Of a stretch of 37,440 nucleotides of DNA, positions 19,612-20,582 are shown piece after piece. Where the stretch lies: the IMG/VR virus record IMGVR_UViG_2541047705_000012. The stretch is one strand, 5' to 3'. Each line of letters begins with the position of its first letter. Positions within the stretch are counted from its first letter, which is position 1. The stretch comes from a virus (Duplodnaviria > Heunggongvirae > Uroviricota > Caudoviricetes). Position numbers and translations under genes: made by a program. The notes beneath the pieces are model-generated. The model saw nothing but the letters and a program-made list of their open reading frames with translations. It was not told where the DNA came from and ran no database searches.

Positions 19612-19713
19612 TTAAAGTGGGATCTAACTCTAATAATTTAAAAAATTTAATTGGGTCTTGATATTAATCACATAGACTCAATGCTCTTTAGTTCTTACAT
19701 AGGTGGTTGTATT

Positions 19714-20154
19714 ATGAGTATCCCCAGTTTAGATGTTCATAAAGTTGTTAAGTGCGCAGAGCATAAAAAGGCTTTAGATGCAATATCTCTCAAACTTAAG
19801 AATAACATTATTGACTCAAGCTCTGAATACGATTTTCTTGGCGACACAATAATTTTCAATAAAGATAAAAAAAATAGGTTAACCCTCAAACTTTCAACAT
19901 ATGAACTAGAACTTATTTTCAAAGAAACACTGCTAGTCATTGATGAAGCTCCTGTATTGAAGTTTGCTGCCATTGACCCAACCGATGAAAATAACAACGA
20001 GCTGATTGATTTATTTTTATCCAAAGGTGGATTTATTTATATTAGAGAATACAAATCCGAGCCACATTATGAGTATGGCGACACTTCTCTATTTTTACAT
20101 ATACTTGACGCTACTCTTAAAGAGCTTAAATCTGCAAACAAAATATCCTATTAA
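19714..20154 (+). CDS. Hypothetical protein, low-GC moron transcribed opposite to the phage late operon
   Basis: Start taken at the ATG at 19714 (GGTGG 7 nt upstream) rather than the track start at 19651; soluble 146-aa product, no family recognised; GC far below the phage backbone. Confidence 0.5.
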   Translation: MSIPSLDVHKVVKCAEHKKALDAISLKLKNNIIDSSSEYDFLGDTIIFNKDKKNRLTLKLSTYELELIFKETLLVIDEAPVLKFAAIDPTDENNNELIDLFLSKGGFIYIREYKSEPHYEYGDTSLFLHILDATLKELKSANKISY

Positions 20155-20260
20155 ATAAATTTTTGCTAACATAGCCCCGCGCCATGACAAGATTTTCTGT
20201 TCTAGATGCAAGGGCTATGTGTGAATATCTATAAACAAAAACCCCATCCGGTGATTTTTG

Positions 20261-20512
20261 TCATTTTTTAGCCATCTCAATTGCGGCATCAAAAAGTCGT
20301 TCAAGAATAAAATCAGGGTACTGTAATTTTTCTTGCTCGATATGAAGCTCATAAATTTTCCCTTCCCACTCCCATTTAAAATTAAATCCAGAAGCAGAAG
20401 GTGCGAAATGTGTTTTAGCTTTAGGGTTAGCGTAACCAGCAACAGTCAACACATCAAACTTAAAATCTTGAGGTTTAATACGCATAATCATATCCTTTGC
20501 CAAGTTCATCAT
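20261..20512 (-). CDS. Hypothetical small protein (low GC) downstream of Rz
   Basis: 83-aa ORF with a TATAAT box about 10 nt upstream of its start; no family recognised. Confidence 0.4.
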   Translation of the reverse strand: MMNLAKDMIMRIKPQDFKFDVLTVAGYANPKAKTHFAPSASGFNFKWEWEGKIYELHIEQEKLQYPDFILERLFDAAIEMAKK

Positions 20513-20582
20513 TATTCTTCGCGATTATAAAACAATGAATAAAATCATTAAAGCATAGACGTTAAATATCCTCAAAATGTGA

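Follow-up and report, generated by a model that had tools for sequence, protein, structure and literature searches.

Two Convergent Genes in a Low-GC Island

The sequence studied here, referred to as the window, is a stretch of 37,440 nucleotides (nt) of tailed-phage DNA (IMG/VR record IMGVR_UViG_2541047705_000012) that corresponds to a prophage of Escherichia coli. An island of low guanine plus cytosine (GC) content, located between the start codon of an HNH endonuclease gene and the stop codon of the Rz spanin gene, carries two small convergent genes, which are named here A (plus strand) and B (minus strand). Both are genuine genes under purifying selection, and they are probably two independent accessory cassettes rather than a functional pair. 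The features of the island are the following, with protein lengths in amino acids (aa).

19612–20582, no strand: low-GC island, between the HNH start codon and the Rz stop codon
19658–19685, plus strand: putative weak promoter of A, TTGATA-16-AATGCT, its -10 element ending 28 nt before the ATG
19702–19706, plus strand: Shine-Dalgarno sequence of A, GGTGG, 7 nt before the ATG
19714–20154, plus strand: gene A, 146 aa, RefSeq WP_000026993.1 (hypothetical protein), antisense to the late operon
19867–19874, plus strand: A8 homopolymer tract in gene A, a site of recurrent slippage
20169–20220, no strand: long imperfect hairpin, ACATAGCCC...GGGCTATGT, in the spacer between the stop codons of A and B
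20234–20262, no strand: hairpin with A-tract and U-tract directly past the B stop codon (-10.4 kcal/mol, z -2.8), a likely bidirectional intrinsic terminator
20261–20485, minus strand: gene B, 74 aa plus stop codon (225 nt), RefSeq WP_001220676.1, in late-operon orientation
20486–20512, minus strand: in-frame upstream extension giving an 83-aa open reading frame, without counterpart in the 74-aa homologues
20493–20498, minus strand: Shine-Dalgarno sequence of B, AAAGGA, 7 nt before the ATG at 20485, invariant in five aligned loci
20524–20529, minus strand: TATAAT -10 box of the B cassette, with a weak -35 element (TTTAAT) 17 nt upstream

The first-pass annotation of this DNA had described A as a soluble 146-aa protein with its own ribosome-binding site, in agreement with the coordinates above, and had attributed a low GC to both genes. 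The GC content is 0.32–0.37 across positions 19700–20600 versus 0.49–0.58 in the flanks (in 300-nt windows). Gene A has 0.33 and gene B 0.36, compared to 0.51 for the whole 37,440 nt, and the GC of A is 0.30–0.35 in every lineage.

Conservation of coding in relatives had been named beforehand as a point on which the first-pass proposal could fail, and it was found for both open reading frames (ORFs), which are kept across genera with ratios of nonsynonymous to synonymous substitution (dN/dS) well below 1. In the homologues of A, the ORF length is kept down to 30% identity, with pairwise dN/dS of 0.13–0.43 (0.22–0.35 versus the copy in the window). In those of B, it is kept down to 55% identity, with pairwise dN/dS of 0.03–0.18 (0.03–0.07 versus the copy in the window, with synonymous sites saturated).

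A and B Are Not Inherited Together

The genomic context of every diverged member of the A and B families was gathered, and their co-occurrence was tabulated. A single E. coli prophage lineage has both genes, each with 88% identity or more to its copy in the window. The diverged homologues of A (30–64% identity, four to five lineages) all lack B. They come from Salmonella/Citrobacter/E. coli ARL09/232, Atlantibacter hermannii, Citrobacter koseri and two metagenomic lineages, and they lie always opposite in strand to the late operon, with the last lysis gene on one side and, on the other, the block formed by HNH and the small (TerS) and large (TerL) terminase genes. The diverged homologues of B (55–78% identity, four lineages) all lack A. 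Their sources are Enterobacter asburiae, Pantoea latae, Citrobacter/Enterobacter kobei types and gut metagenomes. They always follow the spanin genes directly and in the same direction, and the phages that carry them have unrelated terminases (Terminase_2 with Terminase_6 or Terminase_3). Concerning the neighbors shared with the window, the carriers of A have HNH, TerS or TerL homologues at 25–66% identity, and the carriers of B have Rz at 51–53% identity, some of them also the lysozyme at 87%.

A toxin–antitoxin-like or two-gene exclusion module had been suggested for A and B in the first-pass annotation, together with a check of the co-occurrence of the pair in other genomes. That suggestion does not hold, as the pair is limited to one E. 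coli lineage, the genes are convergent and not co-inherited in the diverged loci, and A is lost in genomes where B is intact. Frameshifted products of B are also present in the protein database (P0010, P0014). With A frameshifted beside an intact B, and with B itself frameshifted in those records, it follows that neither gene is needed to tolerate the other.

Recurrent Inactivation of Gene A

A is dispensable and has been repeatedly inactivated. The loss of one adenine from the A8 tract (A8→A7), as in UTI89, cuts A after 53 native residues and gives a 55-aa product. This frameshift is carried by UTI89, NU14, UM146 and others; it was present in about 16 of 40 evenly sampled carrier genomes (about 40%), and the truncated product is recorded on 871 contigs. 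When UTI89-type genomes were compared to ATCC 11775 over a 4-kb stretch, B and six other neighboring annotated proteins were identical. A8→A7 was found also on a second allelic background (L015), about 11% diverged, and another copy of that allele (L041) has a separate 4-nt deletion instead. In P0002, one Lys codon is lost in frame (A8→A5). The A8 tract is limited to the E. coli lineage, as the diverged homologues read GATGCAGAAAAC or GATATAGAAAAT there, and it may be either a mutational hot spot or an on/off switch.

Gene Boundaries and Regulatory Signals

The minus-strand gene had been described as an 83-aa protein with a TATAAT box just upstream. The convergent ORF (20261–20512) and the box (read from 20529 to 20524) are there, but the length is not kept: a start at 20485, giving 74 aa, is favored because the diverged homologues are all of 74 aa, the RefSeq gene has 225 nt and the AAAGGA sequence is conserved. 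The ATG of the 83-aa version sits 11 nt past the TATAAT box. So, judging from the aligned sequences, B is more likely to be a protein of 74 aa than of 83 aa, and the extension 20486–20512 is probably untranslated.

A perfect TATAAT was found 35–38 nt before the start codon of B in four of five loci (the window, L003, L006 and L020; not L005). A generic promoter scan of the region gave no more sites than in shuffled sequence, and a TATAAT alone is not significant in AT-rich DNA; it counts here because its position is conserved across loci. Directly after B, loci L003, L005, L006, L008 and L020 have canonical terminators (GCCGCC-N4-GGCGG-U6, -14.6 to -14.9 kcal/mol), with which the hairpin at 20234–20262 aligns as a degenerate version. 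Its stem is lengthened by an A5/U5 pair, so that a hairpin followed by a U-run is formed on either strand and can serve both A and B. The conserved -10 box, Shine-Dalgarno sequence and predicted terminator together would make B a self-contained promoter-gene-terminator unit within the late operon.

The signals of A are less marked. Its promoter candidate is kept in position in L013 and L022 (TTGATA-16-AATGTT, 28 nt upstream), and at an equivalent distance upstream of A there is TATAAT in L024 (32 nt) and AATGAT in L028 (33 nt). The candidate was not picked up by a stricter generic promoter scan. About 100 nt on the 5′ side of A are conserved among the homologues of 61–64% identity. A conserved RNA hairpin or operator in this region (ATTGA-N17-TCAAT) was considered and dropped, as it was inconsistent across loci.

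The stop codons of A and B are separated by 106 nt. Folding of 20152–20262 gave -25.3 kcal/mol (z -2.6) for the plus strand and -32.1 kcal/mol (z -3.9) for the minus strand. The part of the spacer at 20155–20233, which includes the long hairpin, is lineage-specific junction DNA, absent from the loci with only A or only B. The A-only loci have terminal hairpins of their own, e.g., GCAGGCAC...GTGCCTGC. In B-carrying prophages, the slot past the B terminator is filled by other antisense cargo instead of A, at these positions:

L008, 2211–2840, minus strand: antisense cargo after the B terminator
L003, 6521–7012, minus strand: antisense cargo after the B terminator
L020, 5314–5541, minus strand: antisense cargo after the B terminator

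The examples of this cargo are a 209-aa orphan protein, a DUF2158 protein with an 80-aa protein, and a 75-aa protein. The antisense slot itself is therefore a variable cargo position.

The Island as Inserted DNA

Similarity of the window to other phages ends at about 19611–19616 (HNH start codon) and restarts at about 20591–20593 (Rz stop codon). In phage SfV, the end of Rz1 and the start of the HNH gene are 26 nt apart, while here there are 971 nt between Rz and HNH; in vB_EcoM-720R4, the spanin and HNH genes are similarly close. The direct adjacency of these genes in both phages shows the island to be extra DNA. In other E. coli prophages, whose flanks are about 91–97% identical, the same junction is filled with different cargo: an 83-aa hypothetical protein, a KilA-N protein, or a DUF6979 protein with a 67-aa protein. 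The empty site in SfV and vB_EcoM-720R4 and the alternative cargo elsewhere agree with the view, already advanced in the first-pass annotation, that a moron site lies between Rz and the packaging genes.

Of 5426 complete E. coli genomes, 106 have the island; the match is at 99% identity or more in 105 and, in the other one, is a diverged, A-only locus. The 105 close matches therefore point to a single prophage lineage. The carriers include ATCC 11775, S88, UTI89, NU14, UM146 and avian pathogenic O1/O2:K1 strains. No RNA family of Rfam was matched in the island.

Family, Structure and Literature Searches

That neither protein belongs to a recognized family, as had been stated from the first inspection, was borne out: when the proteins of the window and every member of both alignments were compared to Pfam, PHROGs, NCBIfam and PADLOC, no match to A or B was obtained. 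Only chance-level similarities appeared (PDC-M24A, E 0.016; phrog_33369, E 0.04–0.1; DUF1062, E 0.009 for one member). In terms of the PADLOC-DB v2 defense models, the similarity of A to PDC-M24A amounts to 13 bits over 31 residues, and B gave none. Sequence profiles of the PDB yielded nothing below E 0.05 for A or B, and a tblastn search of 50,697 phage records gave no match to either.

Both families are narrow. The profile of A, in a full HMMER search of 1.84 billion representative proteins, found six representatives, and a metagenome scan for A provided no new context. The homologues of B form about fifteen clusters, and a scan of one genome per species found B in Pantoea latae only. Concerning the literature, the RefSeq accessions of A and B are mentioned in no paper. 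A lead concerning the small RNA svsR (PMC12803456) was dropped, as it refers to a different, lambda-like prophage and the NC-MV deletion primers are absent from the window.

A is a soluble protein with an isoelectric point (pI) of 5.4, predicted to be cytoplasmic; it has no signal peptide and no lipobox, and its N-terminus, MSIPSLDVHKVVKCAEHKK, is hydrophilic. The AlphaFold model of A (predicted local distance difference test, pLDDT, 87; predicted template modeling score, pTM, 0.79) is an alpha-beta6-alpha sandwich formed by a long N-terminal helix (residues 8–37), a six-stranded antiparallel sheet and a C-terminal helix (126–140). The invariant positions of the alignment are residues of the hydrophobic core, together with K104, G106, E112 and, in the N-terminal helix, D7, K18, D22, K29 and D34; they include no His, Cys or Ser. 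B is also soluble (pI 6.7) and, like A, mildly acidic. Its AlphaFold model (pLDDT 68) is alpha-beta3-alpha (helix, three strands, helices), with structural matches that are not diagnostic, and its most conserved parts are the C-terminal helix PDLILERLFEAAIEMAKK and a WxWxG strand.

A Foldseek search against viral models gave one confident neighbor of A, CPT_Mana_015 (QPB09410.1) of Burkholderia phage Mana, a protein of 151 aa (E 1.2e-5; template modeling scores, TM, of 0.72/0.70 over 150 columns). The identity is 14%, and a profile comparison of both proteins (hhalign) gave no sequence signal. CPT_Mana_015 sits between the tail-completion and spike genes of this P2-like phage, and its position between the tail-completion genes and gpV is one that we take to be the orf30 cargo site of P2. 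The phage is temperate, and the gene, hypothetical and stand-alone like A, lies in its late block with an annotated terminator behind it. Unlike A, it is sense-oriented, belongs to a P2-like tail gene region and comes from a host of a different phylum class.

Flanks of the Island and Other Features of the Window

The chromosome of ATCC 11775 matches bases 1448–34167 of the window at 99.5% identity and the island itself at 100%. In the RefSeq annotation of that strain, the prophage has a lambdoid early region, an HK97-type head module and a contractile tail, and it resembles SfV and e14. The late operon runs on the minus strand in the order Q antiterminator, 111-aa low-GC gene, holin, lysozyme, Rz, island, HNH, TerS and TerL. 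The genes located around the island are these:

22458–23252, minus strand: Q antiterminator
21937–22272, minus strand: low-GC gene for a 111-aa protein
21017–21493, minus strand: lysozyme
20583–21020, minus strand: Rz i-spanin, flank on the lysis side (PF03245, E 8e-37)
19261–19611, minus strand: HNH endonuclease, flank on the packaging side (PF01844, E 5e-14)
18641–19144, minus strand: TerS of the P27 family
16911–18644, minus strand: TerL of the HK97 type

Several other observations were made in the window. Within Rz and out of frame with it, there is an Rz1-type o-spanin ORF (20636–20848, minus strand; 70 aa; lipobox LLGISAC), which was left unannotated in the RefSeq record of identical sequence. 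The 111-aa gene is a third low-GC gene (0.33), placed between the Q antiterminator and the holin, with low-GC spacers up to 22457; this slot is presumably that of stx in Stx phages. Its product has a pI of 4.05 and a net charge of about -19, which suggests a possible DNA mimic or inhibitor, and its sole match is phrog_13663 (function unassigned).

Compared to ATCC 11775, there is an insertion of about 1.3 kb at 34168–35477, with overlapping ORFs of 108 aa and 296 aa on the minus strand and an IS3-family-like look, and positions 1–1447 (tail-fiber end) also differ. The insertion indicates that the DNA of the window derives from a strain other than ATCC 11775. Past the integrase gene, at 36486–37440 (minus strand), the identical sequence of ATCC 11775 is annotated as a hypothetical protein and a STAS-like domain protein, and a 303-aa hypothetical protein comes next in that strain, past the end of the window at 37440. 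The genes at 36486–37440 are possibly more cargo, located toward the attachment site of the prophage.

Interpretation of the Island

The interpretation that we consider probable is that A and B are two independent accessory cassettes (morons), with separate histories, at the lysis/packaging boundary of an SfV/e14-like prophage. The B cassette would belong to the lysis module, riding on its 3′ edge, and the A cassette to the 5′ edge of the HNH/TerS/TerL module, so that the island would be the junction where both modules met. This seems the simplest account. B levels in the lysogen would be low, from transcription that begins at its own promoter and halts at its own terminator, and high in lytic growth, from antiterminated late read-through. 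A would be made from its own promoter, against the late operon. As late read-through opposes A, this gene is expected to be expressed mainly in the lysogen or before late transcription, and it would be silenced after induction by the convergent late transcription.

Concerning function, it is most likely, from what the alignments and models suggest, that A and B are small non-enzymatic binding proteins without invariant residues of catalytic type. Each would bind a host or phage protein and provide an accessory benefit to the lysogen or prophage, e.g., exclusion or defense, or modulation of a host protein. Interference with competing phages would be the most plausible of these benefits, although a defense or exclusion role in particular is less likely than not.

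Three observations weigh against the interpretation as independent cassettes. The divergence of A roughly tracks that of the packaging genes (30–64% for A, 25–37% for TerL, 38–66% for HNH) and, as far as can be judged by sequence comparison, would fit a long-resident component of the module at least as well as a hopping moron. The very strong conservation of B and its fixed position after the spanins could reflect a role in the lytic cycle. Finally, the promoter of A is a weak, positionally conserved candidate in a region where the generic scan was at chance level. If A were a long-standing component of the HNH/terminase module, for instance a regulator or an early-acting counter-defense protein, its exclusive presence beside HNH/TerS/TerL, in the same place and orientation down to 30% identity and with a divergence parallel to theirs, would be accounted for; the gene would also lie near the first-entering end of the genome if cos is between HNH and TerS, as we assume by analogy with HK97. 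We consider this quite unlikely, since A is absent from SfV, from vB_EcoM-720R4 and from most of the more than 2500 flank-matching E. coli genomes (many of which match through the HNH gene), is frameshifted in two or three independent ways with the rest of the prophage intact, and keeps a GC (0.30–0.35) that is atypical of the module. As to B, it could be a lytic-cycle accessory, e.g., a cytoplasmic regulator of lysis timing or a late-expressed protein that inhibits a host function, with the late transcript as its main source. In every locus B comes first past the spanins and has the late orientation, its dN/dS (0.03–0.18) is that of a tightly constrained partner, and the Pantoea locus has no TATAAT box. 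However, the holins and spanins of the carriers belong to different families (Phage_holin_2_1, Phage_holin_3_3 and others; PF03245 versus DUF2570), so that B has no cognate lysis partner that varies along with it; B is missing from most phages that share this Rz; and a private -10 box and terminator would be needless in a purely late gene. A lytic role of this kind thus seems unlikely.

The other two alternatives concern the nature of the genes themselves. A functional two-gene module, of the toxin–antitoxin type or with an effector and its immunity protein, is what one might expect of adjacent low-GC orphan genes that share one hairpin between their stop codons and are kept together in the E. 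coli lineage, including a sub-lineage diverged to 88–92%. On the other hand, A and B are not co-transcribed, the partner is missing next to all diverged homologues, in at least nine independent lineages, A is frameshifted beside an intact B in about 40% of the carriers, frameshifted B products exist, and neither PADLOC nor Pfam gives a toxin or antitoxin match; the idea is largely refuted and must be considered very improbable. Even less credit can be given to the possibility that A, B or both are chance ORFs in AT-rich spacer DNA. The lack of a family, the annotation as just "hypothetical" and the frequent frameshifting of A might suggest so, but length and frame persist between genera at 30–78% identity, dN/dS is clearly below 1, the model of A is confident (pLDDT 87) and the Shine-Dalgarno sequences are conserved. 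With respect to coding status, the dN/dS values already refute this possibility.

Returning to the independent cassettes, a bolder version of this interpretation would be that A represents a new, fold-level family of prophage accessory proteins, placed antisense at HNH/terminase edges in Enterobacteriaceae and acting as a costly anti-phage or exclusion factor, with B as a second, independent moron family directed to a constrained host or phage target. This is speculative and, in our estimation, improbable. If true, the cost of A to the host would explain that it is repeatedly switched off through the A8 tract of the E. coli lineage.

In practical terms, the annotation as a toxin–antitoxin or two-gene exclusion system, which was tempting but wrong, is now removed. 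The case illustrates that two genes may look like a pair when they are just neighbors at a mosaic junction, one brought in by the lysis module, the other by the packaging module. Two small protein families, of narrow distribution and confined to Enterobacterales prophages, have been defined, with their gene boundaries, start codons and regulatory signals. If either protein were a defense or exclusion factor, it would represent one more single-gene system, carried by a prophage that is frequent among lineages of clinical importance. There is also near-isogenic natural material at the locus, both with A (ATCC 11775, S88) and without it (UTI89, UM146), in sequence type 95 (ST95)/B2 extraintestinal pathogenic E. 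coli. The most useful leads are the recurrent slippage in A and the strict association of both families with module edges.

Comparison with Known Systems

A and B resemble type II toxin–antitoxin modules in being small, adjacent and located on a mobile element. Unlike the two co-directional genes of one operon that form such modules, they are convergent; they are not co-inherited across lineages, they match no family, and either of them can be disrupted alone, while lone loss of the neutralizing partner is not tolerated in a type II module.

The bor gene of phage lambda lies on the opposite strand directly downstream of Rz and is expressed in lysogens, its product Bor being a lipoprotein. Gene A has the equivalent place: it follows the lysis genes, precedes the packaging genes and is read in the direction opposite to the late operon. 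Unlike Bor, the A protein is predicted to be cytoplasmic, with neither signal peptide nor lipobox, and it has no match to any family of Pfam, PHROGs or NCBIfam.

Morons, in the sense given to this term in HK97 and HK022, are extra genes, of which gp15, responsible for superinfection exclusion, is an example. The island differs from them in that the divergence of A tracks the neighboring module, with no pattern of recent insertion; moreover, neither A nor B resembles a characterized moron product. With respect to the signals predicted for each gene, B has a conserved -10 box and a terminator, and A has the weak promoter candidate and the shared hairpin. In other respects, the island resembles the HK97 and HK022 morons: it is inserted between genes that are otherwise adjacent in relatives, its composition deviates from that of the surrounding phage genes, the cargo at the junction is variable, and B has its own predicted -10 box and terminator. 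The locus is thus an ordinary moron site with two orphan genes, and its earlier description was essentially right save for the length of the minus-strand ORF.

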